A DNA stretch of 64,000 nucleotides, from NCBI RefSeq assembly GCF_053078305.1, contig NZ_CP166879.1. One strand, 5' to 3'. Shown here one piece after another: positions 1,893 through 59,305 of the stretch (positions are counted from its first letter, which is position 1; each line of letters begins with the position of its first letter). A program made the translations under genes and the position numbers. A model generated the notes under the pieces. The model was not told the DNA's origin and ran no database searches. It saw only the letters and a program-made list of their open reading frames with translations.

Positions 1893-2051
1893 AAGGGGAA
1901 TTTGCGAGTCAGCTTCCGCTGAAATGTAAAAGTTGCAGTCCGCTAAAAATACTTCTGAATTCGCTGTCCAAAGATAAAAACTGCCTGCTGCATTGGGTGT
2001 TAATCGTGGTTATTGTCGCGTCATCTTAAATTTGAGGGGTGACGGAACGCC

Positions 2052-2942
2052 ATGACAATATCGACAACTTCCACGCCGCATGATGCGGTATTTAAATCTT
2101 TTTTACGCCATCCAGACACCGCGCGGGATTTTATTGATATTCATCTTCCCGCGCCGCTGCGCAAACTGTGTGATTTAACGACGCTTAAACTGGAACCAAA
2201 CAGTTTTATTGATGAAGACCTGCGGCAATATTATTCCGACCTCTTGTGGTCTGTGAAAACGCAGGAGGGAGTGGGTTATATTTATGTAGTGATAGAGCAC
2301 CAAAGTAAGCCGGAAGAATTAATGGCTTTTCGCATGATGCGTTATTCCATTGCGGCAATGCAAAACCATCTTGATGCGGGCTATAAAGAGCTTCCATTGG
2401 TGATCCCGATGCTGTTTTATCATGGTTGCAGAAGTCCTTATCCTTATTCACTCTGCTGGCTTGATGAATTTGCCGAGCCTGCGATTGCCCGTAAAATATA
2501 TTCATCGGCTTTTCCGTTGGTGGATATTACCGTGGTGCCGGATGACGAGATTATGCAACATCGCAAAATGGCGCTGTTGGAGTTAATTCAGAAACATATT
2601 CGTCAGCGCGATCTGTTGGGATTAGTCGACCAAATTGTTTCGCTGCTAGTTACAGGGAACACTAATGACAGACAGCTAAAAGCCCTGTTTAATTATGTAT
2701 TACAAACGGGAGATGCCCAGCGTTTCCGTGCATTTATTGGTGAGATAACAGAACGCGCACCACAAGAAAAGGAGAAACTGATGACCATTGCTGACAGATT
2801 ACGTGAAGAAGGCGCAATGCAGGGCAAACACGAAGAAGCTCTGCGTATTGCTCAGGAGATGCTGGATAGAGGTTTAGACAGAGAGTTAGTTATGATGGTG
2901 ACCCGACTTTCACCAGACGATCTTATCGCGCAAAGCCACTAA
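2052..2942 (+). CDS. rpnB: Rpn-family recombination-promoting nuclease / transposase-like protein (YhgA-like PD-(D/E)XK)
   Basis: 296-aa ORF; N-terminal HDAVFKSFL motif typical of Rpn/YhgA family; position after hisP matches yfcI/rpnB. Confidence 0.8.
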
Positions 2943-2989
2943 TCCTGTAACACCGGGAGTTAACTGGCGGATGTTTGCTGTAAACCACA

Positions 2990-3883
2990 TCAGCGAACGA
3001 CATCCGCCAGCGCCTCTTCTAAATCGTACCAGCGAAACGCAAAACCCGCTTCTTCCAGCCGTTTAGGCAGCGCGCGTTGTCCACCTAATACCAGTACTGA
3101 AGATTCGCCCATTAACAGTCGAATGGCGGTCGCGGGGACGCGCAAAATGGCCGGGCGATGCAGCGCATGACCGAGCGCATGGGCAAATTGTTCATTGCGT
3201 ATCGGGTAGGGCGAAACCATATTAAATGGCCCGCGCAGCTCGTTATCCAGCAGCCAGAGAATGCCGTTGACCATATCATCGATATGAATCCAGGCCAGAT
3301 ACTGCCGACCGGAACCAATCGGCCCGCCCAGGCCAAGACGAAACGGCGGCAGCATTTTACCGAGAATACCGCCATCCGGTGCCAGCACTACGCCGGTACG
3401 CAGCAGGCACACTCGCGTTTTGTCACTTTGCGCCCGGCAGGCAATTTCTTCCCAGCGGGCGCAGAGTTTATGGGTAAATTCGTTATGCGGCGGTTCCTCT
3501 TCGGTAACCACCACTTCACCTAAGTCGCCATAATAGCCCGTTGCCGAGCCGGAAATGAGTACCGACGGTGGCGTGTCGCTGGCATTAATCAAATCGACCA
3601 GTTTTTGCGTGATATTCCAGCGGCTTTGGCAGAGACGCTCTTTTTGCTCGTGAGTCCAGCGTTTATCAGCAATCGGTTCTCCGGCCAGGTTGATTACCGC
3701 ATCAACGCCGTTGAGGTTGCTTTGATCGGCAAGCCCTTGCCATAGTGTCACCCGAGGGCCGAGAACGGAACTGGCTTTCTGCGGGTTACGCGTCATTACC
3801 GTGATTTGATGGCCCAGCTCCAGCAAACGTGGAATCAAATGGCGACCAATTAATCCCGTCCCTCCGGTGATCACTATGTTCAT
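2990..3883 (-). CDS. yfcH: NAD-dependent epimerase/dehydratase family protein YfcH
   Basis: 297 aa; N-terminal Rossmann GGTGLIG motif; synteny downstream of folX. Confidence 0.85.
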
Positions 3884-3903
3884 GCAGCCTCCCGATATGG
3901 CGG

Positions 3904-25373: not shown

Positions 25374-25419
25374 CCGAATTTCGATTAACGCTCAGTCTCT
25401 GACTGAGAAAACTGGAAGC

Positions 25420-49156: not shown

Positions 49157-50118
49157 TGCGTAGCGCGCAGGTATACCGCTGGCAGATCCCCATGGACGCG
49201 GGGGTGGTTCTGCGCGACAGGCGGTTAAAAACCCGCGACGGGCTGTATGTTTGCCTGCGTGAAGGCGAGCGCGAAGGGTGGGGGGAGATCTCCCCACTGC
49301 CGGGCTTCAGTCAGGAAACCTGGGAAGAGGCGCAAAGTGTGCTGCTTGCCTGGGTAAATAACTGGCTGGCAGGCGATTGCGAGCTACCGCAGATGCCTTC
49401 CGTGGCCTTTGGCGTAAGTTGTGCATTGGCGGAGCTGGCAGATACGCTCCCGCAGGCGGCCAATTACCGTACGGCACCACTGTGTAATGGCGATCCGGAC
49501 GATCTGATCCTCAAACTTGCAGATATGCCAGGCGAGAAAGTGGCGAAGGTCAAAGTGGGATTGTACGAAGCGGTGCGCGACGGCATGGTGGTGAATCTGT
49601 TGCTGGAGGCAATTCCGGATCTGCATTTGCGTCTTGACGCAAATCGCGCCTGGACACCGCTGAAAGGTCAGCAGTTTGCCAAATATGTTAACCCGGATTA
49701 TCGCCACCGCATCGCGTTTCTCGAAGAGCCGTGCAAAACCCGCGATGATTCGCGAGCGTTTGCCCGTGAAACCGGCATTGCCATTGCCTGGGATGAAAGC
49801 TTGCGCGAGCCGGATTTTGCCTTTGTGGCTGAAGAGGGCGTGCGCGCGGTAGTTATCAAACCCACGCTCACGGGCAGTCTGGAGAAAGTTCGCGAGCAGG
49901 TACAGGCGGCGCACGCGCTGGGGCTGACGGCGGTGATCAGTTCTTCCATTGAATCGAGCTTAGGCTTAACGCAACTGGCGCGGATTGCTGCCTGGTTAAC
50001 GCCGGACACCATTCCAGGGCTGGACACGCTGGATCTGATGCAGGCGCAGCAGGTACGTCGCTGGCCGGGTAGCACGCTGCCTGTCGTGGAAGTTGATGCA
50101 CTGGAGCGGTTGTTATGA
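49156..50118 (+). CDS. menC: o-succinylbenzoate synthase MenC
   Basis: 320 aa enolase-superfamily protein; ATG overlaps menB stop. Confidence 0.9.
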
Positions 50119-51470
50119 TCTTCTCTGACTGGCCGTGGCGTCACTGGCGGCAAGTGCGGGGAGAAACCATCGCCTTACGTCTTAATGACGAGCAACTCAA
50201 CTGGCGCGAGCTTTGTGCTCGCGTCGATGAATTAGCCTCCGGCTTTGCGGCGCAGGGCGTTGTTGAGGGCAGCGGCGTGATGTTGCGGGCGTGGAATACG
50301 CCGCAAACGCTGCTCGCCTGGCTGGCGTTACTGCAATGCGGGGCGCGGGTGTTGCCCGTGAACCCTCAGCTGCCGCAACCGTTGCTTGAAGAATTGCTGC
50401 CCAATCTGACGCTGCAATTTGCGCTGGTGCCGGATGGGGAAAACACGTTTCCGGCGTTAACGTCGCTGCACATTCAGCTGGTTGAAGGCGCACATGCCGC
50501 TGCGTGGCAGCCGACGCGTCTGTGCTCAATGACGTTGACCTCGGGTTCTACCGGGTTGCCGAAAGCCGCTGTCCATACTTATCAGGCCCATCTTGCCAGT
50601 GCCGAAGGGGTGTTATCGTTGATTCCGTTTGGCGATCACGATGACTGGTTGCTCTCTTTGCCGTTGTTTCACGTCTCCGGTCAGGGAATTATGTGGCGCT
50701 GGTTATACGCTGGTGCGCGGATGACGGTGCGTGATAAACAGCCATTGGAGCAAATGCTGGCAGGCTGTACTCACGCTTCGCTGGTGCCAACACAACTCTG
50801 GCGTTTGCTGGTTAACCGCAGTTCCGTTTCCCTGAAAGCGGTGTTACTTGGCGGTGCGGCTATCCCGGTCGAGTTGACGGAACAGGCGCGCGAGCAGGGG
50901 ATTCGTTGCTTTTGCGGCTATGGTCTGACCGAGTTTGCCTCCACGGTGTGTGCGAAAGAAGCCGACGGCCTGGCAGACGTTGGTTCGCCGCTGCCGGGTC
51001 GGGAAGTGAAAATCGTTAATAATGAAGTGTGGCTGCGGGCTGCCAGTATGGCAGAAGGTTACTGGCGTAACGGGCAACTGGTTTCACTGGTTAATGACGA
51101 AGGCTGGTACGCTACGCGCGATCGCGGTGAGATGCATAATGGCAAGCTGACCATTGTCGGACGTTTAGACAATCTATTCTTCAGTGGCGGAGAGGGTATT
51201 CAGCCGGAAGAAGTCGAGCGCGTAATTGCTGCACATCCTGCGGTTTTGCAGGTGTTTATCGTCCCCGTTGCCGACAAGGAGTTTGGTCATCGACCGGTGG
51301 CGGTGATGGAGTATGACCACGAGAGCGTTGATCTTAGTGAATGGGTGAAAGATAAGCTGGCCCGTTTTCAGCAACCGGTGCGTTGGTTAACGTTGCCGCC
51401 TGAACTGAAAAACGGCGGTATTAAAATTTCACGTCAGGCGCTAAAAGAGTGGGTGCAACGTCAGCAATAA
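50115..51470 (+). CDS. menE: o-succinylbenzoate-CoA ligase MenE
   Basis: 451 aa adenylate-forming enzyme ([13 protein letters not shown]-binding motif). Confidence 0.9.
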
Positions 51471-51579
51471 TTAACCCTCCGTTTCACTTCTCAGTTCTGC
51501 CATTCCATTGCCGTTGATAAAGAGTTTATCTGTTAATCTGTAAATTGATATGAAAACTCTTAGCAAACAGGATAATACA

Positions 51580-51846
51580 ATGGAATGGCTGGTCAAAAAA
51601 TCGTGCTGCAATAAACAAGATAACAGACATGTACTTATGCTCTGCGATGCTGGCGGCGCGATAAAAATGATCGCCGAAGTGAAGAGTGACTTCGCCGTGA
51701 AAGTGGGGGATTTACTCTCACCTTTGCAGAATGCGCTTTACTGTATTAATCGTGAAAAGCTGCATACGGTGAAAGTCCTCTCGGCAAGCAGTTATAGCCC
51801 CGATGAGTGGGAACGGCAGTGTACAGCGGCAGGGAAAACTCAGTAA
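51580..51846 (+). CDS. pmrD: Signal-transduction connector protein PmrD
   Basis: ORF in track starts at 51550; start placed at [10 protein letters not shown] (88 aa) by recall; synteny between menE and arn operon. Confidence 0.85.
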
Positions 51847-52226
51847 CGTTGTTTTGTCGTGGGCAGGAAAATCAGCATCAACCCGCTCATAATACAGGCT
51901 ACTCCCAGTAGTGCTTTCAGCGAAAAAGTCCCTTCCCAGCCGGGAAGTACCATTGAAGAAATCCATACCAGCACATAACTCATACTGAGCAAGGCATAGG
52001 CTTTGCTTAGCGCAAGTTTATGTAGCGTTTTATACCAACAAAAAACGGAAAGCAGATAACCCAGCAGCCCGAGTAACAGTATCCGGGCATCCAGCCCAAA
52101 AGCTAACAGAGCCGCGATAAAATCCCATAAGTGCGTCATCGGCGGCAGATGACTCGCCGCAAAACCCAGGCTTAATTGCGCAACTGAGGCAATAATGACG
52201 CTGAATAATCCCCACATCAGGCCCAT
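51840..52226 (-). CDS. arnF: Undecaprenyl-phosphate-L-Ara4N flippase subunit ArnF
   Basis: Start placed at MGLMWGLF inside the longer ORF 51840..52508; 128-aa SMR-like membrane protein; ATG overlaps arnE stop (TAATG). Confidence 0.85.
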
Positions 52227-52561
52227 TACACCGTACTCCCGAGGATCACAATGCCACCAATAATGAACGCCACCCCACACCAGTGACGCGGCGATACCGG
52301 TTCGTGCCACAGTTTTACTGCAGCCAGCGTCACCCAGACAAAATTCAGACTTAACATCGGGTAGGCAATGCCTACCGGTACGTTCTGCAGGACCAGCAGC
52401 CAGAGCACCATGGCAAGACCAAGACAAGCCAGCGCCAGTCCCAGCCACAGCACGATATGTTTGCGCCGTTTGTTTATCGCCACAAAGCAGGTTGCCTGTT
52501 TCTGACACAACTGCCCGGCAACGCTAAGCAAGCTGGCAAAGACTAATGTTAGCCAGATCAT
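52226..52561 (-). CDS. arnE: Undecaprenyl-phosphate-L-Ara4N flippase subunit ArnE
   Basis: 111-aa SMR-like membrane protein; overlaps arnT stop. Confidence 0.9.
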
Positions 52562-54210
52562 TTGGGACGATACTGAATCAGCACCAGACGCTCCTGACGA
52601 TCGATGGCATCTGCGGGCGGAATGGCGAGACTGTTGATATCTTCATCGCGGTCAACCGAAAGCACGAGTGTAATAATCCCCTCCTGACGATGTTGATTAA
52701 GCCAGTTTGCGAACTCATCACCGCTGACAAATCTCCCTTTCGCATCCGGATAATTAAGGCCGTATTTCAACTCACCTGTCTGGCGATACATGATGATGTC
52801 ATCGCGTTGCAGGCTCCATGCCAGACCTGCGGCAACACCGACGCTATCAGTAAGAATATAGCGGCTTGGCTGAAGTGATTCTTGTGTCATCTCGACAAAA
52901 AATTGCGGATGTTTTCCTTCCATGACTCTGTCAGGAATTGAAAATCCTACCAGCAACGCCAGCCCCAGCGGGCAAAGCGCGGCAAAAGACCAGGTCTTTT
53001 CGACGTTTGTTAAGGTGTACCAGCCGAAAAATGCCCATAGCGAAAAAATCGACCAGGCACAAAAGACTTTATAGCTCTCGAAGGTTTGCCACACCGGCGT
53101 GTTCATTGGTCCCCAGGGGGAGACCACAAATGTGGCAATAATGCCAGTGACGCCAAAAGCGATGTTAATCCAGCCATTAATCCGCAGCGCCAGAGGATTA
53201 TTTTTTGCTGCCAGCAAAGCGTAATGCGCCATCAGCATTGCCAAAGGTGCAAAGCAAGAAAGAATATAGGTGGGCAATTTACCCTTAGCAACGGAGAAAA
53301 ACAGCAGCGGCATTATCGTCCAGCTCAACAAATAGACGGTTGCGGAATGCTTGCGGTTTTTCCAGCCTGTGTATAGTGCACCGGGGAGTAATCCCAGCCA
53401 CGGCAGGCTACCGGCAATGATGACCGGCACGTAGTACCAGAACGGAGCTCTATGTTGGGCATCATCCAGTGCAAAGCGTTGAATATGCTCAACCCAGAAA
53501 AAATAGTGCCAGAAGTCAGGCTCCCGCTGCGCTATCGCCAGTCCCCAGGGGAGAACCGTCAGTACGCAACTGATAACCGCCAGCCAGCCGTAAATAAAGA
53601 GATCTTTCCAGCGTTTTTGTGTCGCTACCCATGGCAGCACGCTTAATACCGGCACGGCAAGGGCGAGAAAACCTTTGGTCATCACCCCCATGCCGCAGGT
53701 GATTCCCAGCAGTAAAAATCCTGCGCTTTTGCCTTTCCACGTCTGTGCCTGCATTGCCAGCCAGAAGCTGCACATTCCCGCCACCAGCCAGAAGGCAATA
53801 AACGGATCGAGCACGGCATAAGTGCCGATGGCATAGACAATAAACAATGAGAGATAAATTACTGTGGCGAGTAGAGCCAGACGTTTATCGCGCCATAAGC
53901 GCAGAGTAAACCAGGTCACCAGCGCGGCAGTTAACAGGGTCGCAAAGATAACGCCTGCCCGCACACCAAAGTTATTCGCGCCAAATAGCCATTGCCCAAT
54001 GCTGTTAATCCAGTATCCGGCAATGGGTTTTTCGAAATAACGTAGCCCTAACAGATGGGGCACAATCCAGTCGCCGGATGCCAGCATTTCTCGACTGATT
54101 TCCGCATAACACGTTTCATCGGGTTGCCATAGCAGACGCGTGCTGATCGGTAACAGGTAATAGCAGGCAATAAACGCGAAGAGGCCGATAAGGTAACGTA
54201 CCGATTTCAT
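52558..54210 (-). CDS. arnT: Lipid A L-Ara4N transferase ArnT
   Basis: 550-aa polytopic glycosyltransferase (GT-C); operon position. Confidence 0.95.
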
Positions 54211-55100
54211 CAGCGACTACCCGCAATTTGTTGGCAACCCAGCCAGCCTTCACGTCCGGCAATATTTCCGCGAACAACTTGTCCGAGCGGCAACGTCTCT
54301 GATAACAGTTCGCTTAAAGGGCAAAATGTCACGCCTTCCTGAGCTGCGCGTTTGAGGAGATCCACAAAATTATGCTGATAAGCGCAGCCTTCAACTTCTG
54401 CATGAATGGTATAAACCGGCGTGCCTTTATCTCGCAGGATGCGGTTGAGTAACCAACCGTTAAAATCTTCTGCTTTCACATCCCGACCAATCACTTCATC
54501 CCAGGTGGGTAAGGTCACCGGAATTTGCGCAGTGCCAGGGTTTCCTGATTCGAGCAGTGGACGGAACGGCATGGCCCCACGACAATCGCTGTTGTAGCGC
54601 AAATGGAACGCTTCTTTTGCTTCGATCACCTGCTGGTCGGCACGCCAGCCCGCAGCGGCAGAACAGGTTACCGGTTGACCGATAATCTCTTCCAGAGTGC
54701 GAAGGCCGCGTGCAATATCGTCGATCATTGTTTGCCGATCCCAGTTACCGCTACGGGCTTGCCAGGCATGGTGATCCCAGGCGTGCAGGCCGACTTCGTG
54801 ATGTTTAGCCGCTTCACGAATGATATCGGCATTGGCATGACCAATCTCTTTACCTGGCCAGGCCGTACCTGCCAGTAAAATATCCCAGCCATAAAGCGAT
54901 GCCGCGTTTGAGCGCAGCATCTTCCACAAAAACTGTGGCTTCACCAGTCGCCAGAGATGACGGCCCATATTGTCCGGGCCGACGCTGAAAAAAATGCTGG
55001 CCTGAATATTATGCTTACTCAAGATTTCCAGCAGACGCGGCACGCCTTCACGGGTGCCACGAAAGGTATCGACATCAATGCGTAAGCCTACTTTGGTCAT
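54210..55100 (-). CDS. arnD: Undecaprenyl-phosphate-4-deoxy-4-formamido-L-arabinose deformylase ArnD
   Basis: 296-aa polysaccharide-deacetylase-fold protein; operon position. Confidence 0.95.
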
Positions 55101-57078
55101 GATGGTTTATCCGTAAGATCAACGGTGCGCAGGAAGAAATCCAGCGTTTCGTCGATGGTTTCCTGCATATCAATTTTCGGCTCCCAGTCCAGGCAGCGGT
55201 GGGCATTGCGGATGCTCGGTTTACGATGCTCTACGTCCTGATATCCTTTGCCGTAGTAGCTGCTACTTTCGACAACGCGAAAGCCCGCAAACGGTGGGAA
55301 ATGATGGCGCAGCGGATGTTTTTCGAAGCTCGCCAGCAGCATCTCGCCCAGTTCCTCAATGCTCGCTTCGTTCTCAGGATTGCCAATGTTGATAATTTCG
55401 CCGTCGCAGCGATTTCCCGCATTTTCGATAATGCGGTATAACGCCTCGATACCATCGCGAATATCAGTAAAGCAGCGTTTTTGTTTTCCGCCATCAATTA
55501 GCTTAATCGGTGAACCTTCTACCAGATTGAGAATGAGTTGCGTAATCGCGCGGGAGCTGCCAATTCGCGCTGCATTAAGGTTATCCAGTCGTGGTCCCAT
55601 CCAGTTAAACGGGCGGAAGAGGGTGAACTGTAAACCCTCTTTTTCGCCATAGGCCCAGATCACCCGATCAAGTAATTGTTTTGACACCGAATAAATCCAG
55701 CGTGGTTTATTCACCGGGCCGACGATTAAATTAGAATGGTCCTCATCGAAGTATTTATCGCTACACATTCCATAAACTTCTGAAGTTGATGGGAAGATGA
55801 TTCGCTTACGGTACTTCACGCAGTAGCGGATAATGCGCAGATTCTCTTCAAAATCGAGTTCAAATACGCGCAGCGGATTGCGGGTATATTCAATCGGCGT
55901 GGCTATCGCCACCAGCGGCAAGACGACATCACATTTTTTGACGTGATACTCAATCCATTCGGAATGAATACTGATATCGCCTTCGACAAAGTGAAAATGC
56001 GGATGATTCAGAAAACGGCTTATCGCATCGCTGCCAATATCCAGACCGTAAACTTCATAATGATCTTCGCGCAGCAGGCGTTCTGTCAGATGGTTGCCAA
56101 TAAAGCCATTCACCCCGAGGATGAGTACCCGGGTACGGCGTCGGGCGGCACAGGCAGGCTGGCTATTCAAGCGTGAACCTTGCACCAGGCCCAGCGTCTG
56201 CGCTAATTGCGAGCCCTGCATAGTAATGCCGTCGCCCGCCTGTCCGGTGACGATTTCCAGCGCGCCATCGCCACAGGCAATCAGCAGTGGCGCAACAGAA
56301 ATCACGCTCCCCGGCTGTGCTTTGCTGGCATGAGGATGAACACGCGACGACCAGACGGTGAATTTCTGATTGCCAACATAGCTGAAGGCACCCGGCCACG
56401 GATCGGCAACGGCACGTACCATGTTGTGCAGTACGGATGCCGGCTTATGCCATTCGATGAAACTGTCATCCGGCGTTCTGCGACCAAAACAGGTGGCTTC
56501 GTTTTCGCGCTGGGCGATTTCCAGAATATTACCGTGTTTAATGGCGGGTAATGTCTGTTCCAGTAGCTGGCGCGCGGCATGGCACAATTTATGATGCAGC
56601 GTAATAGCGATATCGTCTGGCGCAATGGCAACGCGCAGTTGCGCCACAATGGCCCCGGCATCGGCACGTTTTACCATTCGGTGCAATGTAACGCCAGTTT
56701 CTGTTTCACCGTTCACCAGCACCCAGTTCAGCGGCGCGCGACCACGATATTTTGGTAACAGCGAACCGTGCAGATTAAATGCACCTGCGGGAGCGAGCTG
56801 CAAAATCTCGTCGCAAATAAGATGGCGATAATAAAAAGAGAAAATCACCTCTGGTGAGAGTTGGGCAATGCGTTCCACCCACAGCGGATGATTAACGTTA
56901 TCCGGCGCATAAACCGGAATGCCTCTTTCCGCCGCCAGACGAGCCACCGAACCATAAAAGGCTTTTTCACCGGGATTATCGGTATGGGTAAAAATGGCGC
57001 TAATTTCGTAACCGGCAGCCAGCAGGGCTTCAATACCGAGGCATCCCATATCGTGGTAGGCAAAAACGACGGTTTTCA

Positions 57079-57079
<1 letters not shown>
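55097..57079 (-). CDS. arnA: Bifunctional UDP-GlcA decarboxylase / UDP-Ara4N formyltransferase ArnA
   Basis: 660 aa; N-terminal formyltransferase and C-terminal SDR domain ([10 protein letters not shown]). Confidence 0.95.
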
Positions 57080-58050
<971 letters not shown>

Positions 58051-59208
58051 TTATTGTCCTGCGAGTTGCTGAAGGGCTGTGATGACACGGTCGGCATCGG
58101 CGGTAGTCATATCCGGGAACAGCGGCAACGAACAGATGCGTTCGCTATTCCATTCGGTATTCGGTAACGACAGCGTGGGAAAACGCTCGCGATAATATTT
58201 TTGTGTGTGAGCGGCGCGGAAATGTAACCCGGTACCAATACCTCTTTCTTTTAACGCTTCCATCAACGCATTTCGACTGATACCACAACGTTGTTCATCG
58301 ACACGAATAATAAACAGATGCCAGGCGTGAACGTGCGACCAGGCGGGAAGGCTTAATGGCTGAAAGGGGAGAGCTGCCAGTGCTTGCTGATATTGCTGGG
58401 CAATTTCGCGCCGACGGGTGTTGAGGTGCTCTAATTTAGCTAACTGTGTCAGGGCAATCGCGGCGTTAATATCGGTCAGATTGTACTTATAGCCCGGTGT
58501 TAAGACTTCAGCCTGCGGTGCACGGCCCCAGGTTTGTCTGTCATAGGCATCGACACCCAGACCGTGAAATTTCAGCATCCGTAGCTGGCGGGCAAGATTT
58601 TCATTATCAGTAACAATCAGGCCACCTTCCGCACAGGTAATATTTTTGATGGCGTGAAACGAAAAAATAGCGGTACCTTTTGCGCCAATATGTCGCCCTT
58701 TGTAATACGTACCGACGGCATGGGCTGCATCTTCGATAACTGCGATGCCGTAACGTTCGCCAATGGCGCGAATGGCGTTAATATCTGCTGGCGCACCGGC
58801 ATAATGCACCGGAATGATGGCTTTAGTGCGTGGCGTAATGGCTGATTCGATCGCTTCAGGCGTGACCATCAGCGTATCGCGATCGACATCCACCATTACC
58901 GGCGTTGCACCCTGCAAGGAAATCATATTGAGGGTTGAAACCCAGGTCAGGGAAGGCGTAATCACTTCATCGCCCTTGCCAATTTCCAACGCCATTAGCG
59001 TGATATGCATTCCGGCGGTGGCTGAACTGACCGCGATGGCATGCTGATTTCCTGTCAACTGGCAAAAGGCTTGTTCAAGCGCCTGATTCTTCGGACCGGT
59101 TGTGATCCAACCGGATTCGAGAACCTCTTTAACTGCAGCGAGTTCCTCCACGCCCATTGCTGGTCGCGAAAAAGGCAAAAATTCTGACATTGCTTTTCCT
59201 TCCGCCAT
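58051..59208 (-). CDS. arnB: UDP-4-amino-4-deoxy-L-arabinose aminotransferase ArnB (start uncertain: 59190, 59208 or 59223)
   Basis: DegT/ArnB-type PLP aminotransferase; ORF in track 58051..59223. Confidence 0.9.
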
Positions 59209-59288: not shown

Positions 59289-59305
59289 ATTAACTTAACC
59301 TTAAG
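59289..59305 (-). promoter_or_regulatory. Candidate PmrA (BasR) box upstream of arnB
   Basis: Minus strand reads CTTAAG-gttaa-GTTAAT, matching YTTAAK-N5-YTTAAK direct-repeat consensus in 11 of 12 positions; 81-97 bp upstream of arnB ATG. Confidence 0.5.

Follow-up and report, generated by a model that had tools for sequence, protein, structure and literature searches.

The tail-to-tail overlap of pmrD and arnF in Escherichia coli, a tightly packed and already known convergent junction

The analysed stretch of DNA, called the window here, comprises 64,000 nucleotides of an Escherichia coli chromosome with the gene order his-...-nuo-men-pmrD-arn, in an orientation opposite to that of K-12. The gene pmrD (51580..51846, plus strand) encodes the PhoP-activated connector protein PmrD, which protects phospho-PmrA, and comprises 88 codons and a TAA stop codon at 51844-51846. 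It is supported by the ORF list, NCBIfam, a PDB match and RefSeq. The gene arnF (52226-51840, minus strand), supported by NCBIfam and RefSeq, starts with an ATG at 52226 and ends with a TGA at 51842..51840. Its 128-aa product is a subunit of the undecaprenyl-phosphate-L-Ara4N flippase, and it is the last gene of arnBCADTEF. The two genes form a convergent overlapping pair on opposite strands, in which the coding regions including the stop codons have common bases. The tail-to-tail overlap, TCAGTAA at 51840-51846, is 7 bp long and contains both stop codons. PmrD ends in T-Q-stop and ArnF in R-Y-stop.

The 851 bases around the junction are 100% identical to those of strain Res13-Sevr-PER07-33. 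The locus was found in 5419 of the 5426 complete E. coli genomes and was chromosomal in each of them. In the RefSeq annotation of K-12 MG1655, arnF (2372892-2373278) and pmrD (2373272-2373538) have the same 7-bp overlap, which RefSeq also annotates in the strain that is identical here and in a strain with 94.6% identity. The K-12 genes (b2258-b2259) lie in the same order, menE > pmrD > < arnF < arnE, around the same TCAGTAA. The window represents another strain; compared with MG1655, its PmrD differs at two C-terminal residues (CTAAGKTQ instead of CKVAGKTQ) and its ArnF at one residue.

The gene identities proposed in the sequence-only reading, pmrD and arnF, have been confirmed by equivalog scores above the cutoffs, and the RefSeq annotation agrees. 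PmrD reaches 174.3 bits on the NCBIfam equivalog NF011994 (Pfam PF11183; cutoff 96), and its residues 1-85 align to model positions 1-85 of 85, thus over the full length. In comparison with the solved 88-aa E. coli PmrD (2JSO/4HN7), 86 of the 88 residues are identical. ArnF scores 139 bits on the equivalog NF002816 (cutoff 99) and ArnE 214 bits. The position of arnF directly after arnE in the arn operon agrees with this assignment. An upstream ATG at 51550 would give a longer pmrD ORF with a different start only; no Shine-Dalgarno sequence precedes it, and the RefSeq-type ATG at 51580 has an AGGA ribosome-binding site. Both stop codons are unambiguous, and the products of pmrD and arnF are full-length family members. 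The stops that had been placed at 51846 for pmrD and at 51840 for arnF are exact in sequence and ORF list, and so is the 7-bp overlap, which is the same in the K-12 annotation; other start or stop calls that would abolish it were considered, and the overlap stays, with the stops fixed by the frames. An annotation artefact, with pmrD or arnF starting or ending elsewhere and hence no overlap, has a next to negligible probability and is ruled out: the ATG at 51550 and database entries with N-terminal extensions touch the start only, the reading frames fix the stop codons, the solved protein is the 88-aa PmrD, both proteins align with their equivalog models from one end to the other, identical stops have been called independently across many genomes (RefSeq), and the 7-mer at 51840-51846 is identical in K-12 and other strains.

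Upstream of pmrD and in the same direction lies menE (50115..51470, plus strand; ORF list, RefSeq). The menE-pmrD spacer of 109 nt contains the pmrD ribosome-binding site, and a consensus scan found no terminator-like site in it. On the other side, arnE (52226..52561, minus strand; 111 aa; ORF list, NCBIfam) overlaps the arnF start with its stop by 1 nt, and arnE and arnF are translationally coupled operon partners. The upstream part of the arn operon, with arnT, arnD, arnA, arnC and arnB, occupies 52558..59190 on the minus strand. From the arnB ATG at 59190 the gene order is arnB, arnC, arnA, arnD, arnT, arnE, arnF, and transcripts started at the arnB promoter would be the ones to enter pmrD in antisense.

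Overlaps between convergent coding sequences are not exceptional. About 75 occur in E. coli, pmrD-arnF among them, and for this genome, the pmrD-arnF overlap is no rarer than expected by chance. The corresponding stretch of the closest complete genome contains seven convergent pairs, of which only pmrD/arnF overlaps; the others are 32-66 bp apart. A second convergent pair of the window, rpnB > < yfcH at about 2050-3900, is also on the published MG1655 excludon list. Its gap measures 47 bp in the reference strain, from which the coordinates were mapped.

Other observations concern more distant parts of the window. The segment 35544-41172, between nuoN and a deubiquitinase gene, carries genes for an SMI1/KNR4 protein and hypothetical proteins, together with yfbM, yfbL and yfbK. 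This segment is variable, with 936 of the 5406 matching genomes covering at least 80% of it. The gene yfbK seems split into the ORFs 39376-40380 and 40323-41102, which suggests a frameshift. A nuoG RNA motif (Rfam RF01748), a known cis-regulatory family, was found in the nuo operon near the nuoG start (25376-25418, plus strand; 50 bits against a gathering score of 33). The last 1.3 kb (62670-64000), downstream of yfaY, do not align to the closest complete genome, which has rpnE there; they are another strain-variable junction.

Terminators were sought on both strands with a consensus scan and a relaxed scan for hairpins followed by T-runs. Neither scan detected a terminator at the junction. 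The earlier statement that no room is left for separate terminators holds, since none lies between the genes and no canonical one follows downstream on either strand. No conserved intrinsic terminator was found inside pmrD or arnF. A scan of the locus against Rfam yielded nothing; a single snoRNA match, far below the threshold, is noise. Bidirectional intrinsic terminators were reportedly described by Ju, Li and Liu in 2019, using SEnd-seq, as shared by convergent genes. They resemble the present case in addressing how two convergent units end within a very short space. Their defining features, a GC-rich hairpin with an A-tract upstream and a U-tract downstream, differ from what is found at or near the pmrD-arnF junction, where no such hairpin occurs; therefore, the bidirectional-terminator solution is not used here.

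Four individual structures were evaluated. A hairpin with an 11-bp stem lies in arnF at 51985-52010 (context 51974-52022), 139-164 nt past the pmrD stop codon and within the codons for LSKAYALLS. Escherichia, Salmonella and Citrobacter all retain its core, in which a few pairs carry changes on both sides. A second structure, on the minus strand and thus in arn sense, combines a hairpin and a U5 run at 51663..51697 (z = -4.1), antisense to pmrD codons 28-40. It occurs in typical E. coli alleles only and is absent in other Escherichia clades, Salmonella and Citrobacter; it was rejected as a conserved terminator and is a non-canonical candidate for the 3' end of arn transcripts. A candidate at 51947..51932 (minus strand) in arnF was rejected, as its T-run is lost in Salmonella and its stem derives from Pro-Gly-Trp codons. 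The hairpin around the pmrD stop (51823-51852, plus strand) was also rejected, with a U-run inside the stem and a stem that is weaker in K-12.

The first two structures could act as embedded terminators: hairpins in the opposite coding sequences, at 51985-52010 for pmrD transcripts and at 51697-51663 for arn transcripts, would set short, discrete 3' UTRs and limit the duplex to only about 165-185 nt. This explanation is rather doubtful. The plus-strand hairpin 51974-52022 is stable (-17.7 kcal/mol, z = -4.1; -13.6 on the other strand in E. coli), and its conservation in three genera speaks for this reading. However, a U-tract next to it is missing, the alignment shows it forming with similar ease on either strand, and its energy places it only in the top 5% or so of the 50-nt windows in this stretch; as a terminator it was rejected on account of the missing U-tract and the unexceptional energy. 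Its arms encode a palindromic Leu-Ser...Leu-Ser peptide, and the structure may merely reflect this coding constraint. It could also be a 3'-end-stabilising structure or mark a processed pmrD 3' end. For the arn side, the hairpin and the U5 run speak in favour, but they are separated by a 4-nt gap, and the restriction to typical E. coli alleles stands against a general function.

The searchable supplements of published 3'-end studies provide no matching ends. Those of Adams 2021 and TERMITe 2025 contain no 3'-end rows for pmrD or arnF, and in none of the searchable supplements does a mapped 3' end lie beyond the stop codon of either gene. In an RNAtag-seq catalogue, one 3' terminus without a hairpin, classed as 'internal', falls 15 nt into pmrD (PMC10687069). 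This terminus, at K-12 position 2373524 (minus strand), corresponds to about 51594 (plus strand) in the window and may be where read-through from the men operon stops or where pmrD transcripts end prematurely. In both 3' extensions C exceeds G (C/G about 1.1-1.7), a composition that would be compatible with Rho loading.

The locus was compared in other Escherichia, Salmonella, Citrobacter, Intestinirhabdus and Klebsiella. Spacing was counted from the end of the pmrD stop to the arnF stop, so that negative values denote an overlap. All Escherichia loci with an intact arnF keep a spacing of -7, written as TCAGTAA, TCAGTAG or TCAGTGA. They include E. albertii, the cryptic clades, and a divergent E. 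coli allele in which PmrD is only 64% identical. Salmonella enterica (subsp. enterica and diarizonae) has the same synteny, pmrD-pmrM(arnF), with a spacing of -6 in TCATGA; this junction has an overlap of another length and in another frame, with shorter proteins of 85 and 125 aa. In Citrobacter, spacings of +2 (C. freundii), +3 (C. farmeri and relatives) and +9 (C. amalonaticus) were found. None of these arrangements in Escherichia, Salmonella and Citrobacter leaves room for an intergenic terminator. Conserved across the genera is the absence of a spacer, and the exact overlap is genus-specific. The lack of a spacer, not the exact overlap, is thus ancestral to the menE-pmrD-arnF arrangement, and each genus has its own exact overlap.

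Several loci deviate from this pattern. One Escherichia genome has lost the arn operon by a deletion which left the last ~22 arnF codons, and the pmrD stop is shifted (90 aa). Shortened arnF genes were observed in one Escherichia sp. (87 aa) and in S. arizonae (114 aa). Intestinirhabdus alba has the order menE-pmrD-ais with no arn operon adjoining pmrD. Klebsiella pneumoniae carries pmrD at another locus, between genes for a hydrolase and an AMP-nucleosidase, the latter downstream on the same strand. The order menE-pmrD-arnF is confined to the Escherichia/Salmonella/Citrobacter lineage. Klebsiella was rejected as a natural test of arn read-through because its pmrD lies at an unrelated locus.

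Within PmrD, variability is highest in the tail after W77. The last three residues of PmrD and the last six of ArnF extend beyond their equivalog models. Such variable tails outside the models are what one would expect if the stop codons had drifted within a densely packed junction. Against drift, the strict -7 across Escherichia could reflect selection rather than a mere absence of indels.

The regulatory elements of both units were searched in the window. The menE-pmrD spacer contains no PhoP box with up to two mismatches and no PmrA box within the mismatch limits. A PhoP-box-like sequence, GGTTTTGCAGGTGTTTA (one mismatch; 51242-51258, plus strand), lies inside menE, ~330 nt upstream of pmrD. 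A PmrA-box-like direct repeat, CTTAAGGTTAAGTTAAT (59289..59305, minus strand), is located ~100 nt upstream of the arnB ATG and is a consensus match only. As a putative PmrA box, it would be in keeping with control by PmrA of the arn operon, which converges on pmrD. In Salmonella, a PmrA site is said to have been located in the pmrD promoter by Kato et al. in 2003, with the feedback acting through that site. PmrD connects PhoPQ with PmrAB, and the arn (pbgP) operon of Salmonella is activated by PmrA (PMC2565834). The gene pmrD is activated by PhoP; its transcription is repressed by PmrA in Salmonella but not in Klebsiella (PMC2565834). E. coli has been described as lacking this feedback loop of PmrA on pmrD (PMC3140997).

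Whenever both genes are transcribed, complementary 3' transcript regions are unavoidable, as the coding sequences themselves overlap. The overlapping 3' UTRs that had been deduced from the sequence are a necessity of this arrangement and agree with a published record. In an analysis with ExcludonFinder, arnF-pmrD is one of 165 convergent excludons of MG1655, called from RNA-seq coverage in at least 50% of 58 MG1655 data sets (NAR 2025, PMC12288877). The authors pointed out that arnF and pmrD act in one pathway (PMC12288877). Like other excludons, the pair consists of neighbouring genes on opposite strands that converge without an effective terminator between them. In contrast to the definition of excludons by mutually exclusive expression, the pair was listed from RNA-seq coverage (PMC12288877), and its coding sequences themselves overlap. 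For genes with overlapping coding sequences, such a call is almost automatic and silent on effect size. The search of the accessible literature found no experiment on interference at pmrD-arnF. The supplements of a p19 dsRNA-capture study contain no entry for pmrD or arnF, in tables that are possibly incomplete and under conditions that were perhaps not inducing. Regulatory antisense interference between the arn operon and pmrD, as the sequence-only reading had suggested, is a plausible hypothesis, for which the searches found no supporting evidence. As the overlap is annotated and the transcript pair already published, neither the observation nor the idea of interference is new.

A functional convergent excludon would go further. 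PmrA-driven read-through from the arn operon would cross pmrD, and collision of polymerases and/or cleavage of the duplex by RNase III would lower pmrD expression. If true, this would constitute a promoter-independent negative feedback on the connector protein PmrD; conversely, PhoP-driven transcription of pmrD would damp the distal arn genes. This explanation is unlikely. It draws on the missing terminator between or near the genes, on the close apposition in Escherichia, Salmonella and Citrobacter, and on the listing as an excludon within one pathway (PMC12288877). That listing is near-automatic for overlapping coding sequences, however, and comes without an effect size; neither pmrD nor arnF has an entry in the searchable supplements of the p19 dsRNA-capture or 3'-end studies, and the exact spacing differs between the genera. 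The logic of the feedback matches the loop in Salmonella, in which PmrA represses pmrD, but that loop has been described as repression of pmrD transcription (PMC2565834) and has been reported absent in E. coli (PMC3140997). The lineage in which pmrD abuts arnF includes Salmonella with its PmrA repression, and Klebsiella has neither the adjacency nor the repression. A functional antisense effect would lead one to expect such a correlation, which keeps this effect alive as a minority hypothesis. A functional antisense contribution has a low probability overall. Less credible is the specific form in which antisense RNA from arn read-through would provide a second, promoter-independent feedback on pmrD in Escherichia, Salmonella and Citrobacter, for which the pmrD-arnF apposition would have been selected.

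The most probable explanation, with a probability of about 0.72, is an ordinary, tightly packed convergent junction with drifted stop codons, no terminator, control at the promoter level, and an overlap without a demonstrated regulatory role. In this ordinary junction, pmrD is a small, lineage-restricted gene that lies, with next to no spacer, between the men operon and the point where the arn operon ends. The last codons of pmrD and arnF would encode unconstrained C-terminal tails, and the stop codons would thus have drifted until they interdigitated in TCAGTAA. With no intergenic or conserved nearby terminator, each transcript must enter the other gene as untranslated antisense RNA. The transcripts would most likely be ended by Rho and/or trimmed back by nucleases, and complementary 3' regions would arise whenever pmrD and arnF are both transcribed. 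The main control would remain at the promoters, with PhoP acting on pmrD and PmrA on arnB.

The pmrD-arnF overlap is real, ordinary and already known. As it stands, it matters little, being part of the reference annotation and of a published list of overlapping transcripts. If arn read-through measurably lowered PmrD, the junction would become a wiring detail in the well-studied circuit for resistance to polymyxin and antimicrobial peptides, and a clear natural example of an excludon whose two genes serve a single pathway. Natural variants for testing this exist, with spacings of -7, -6 and +2 to +9 and an unlinked pmrD in Klebsiella.
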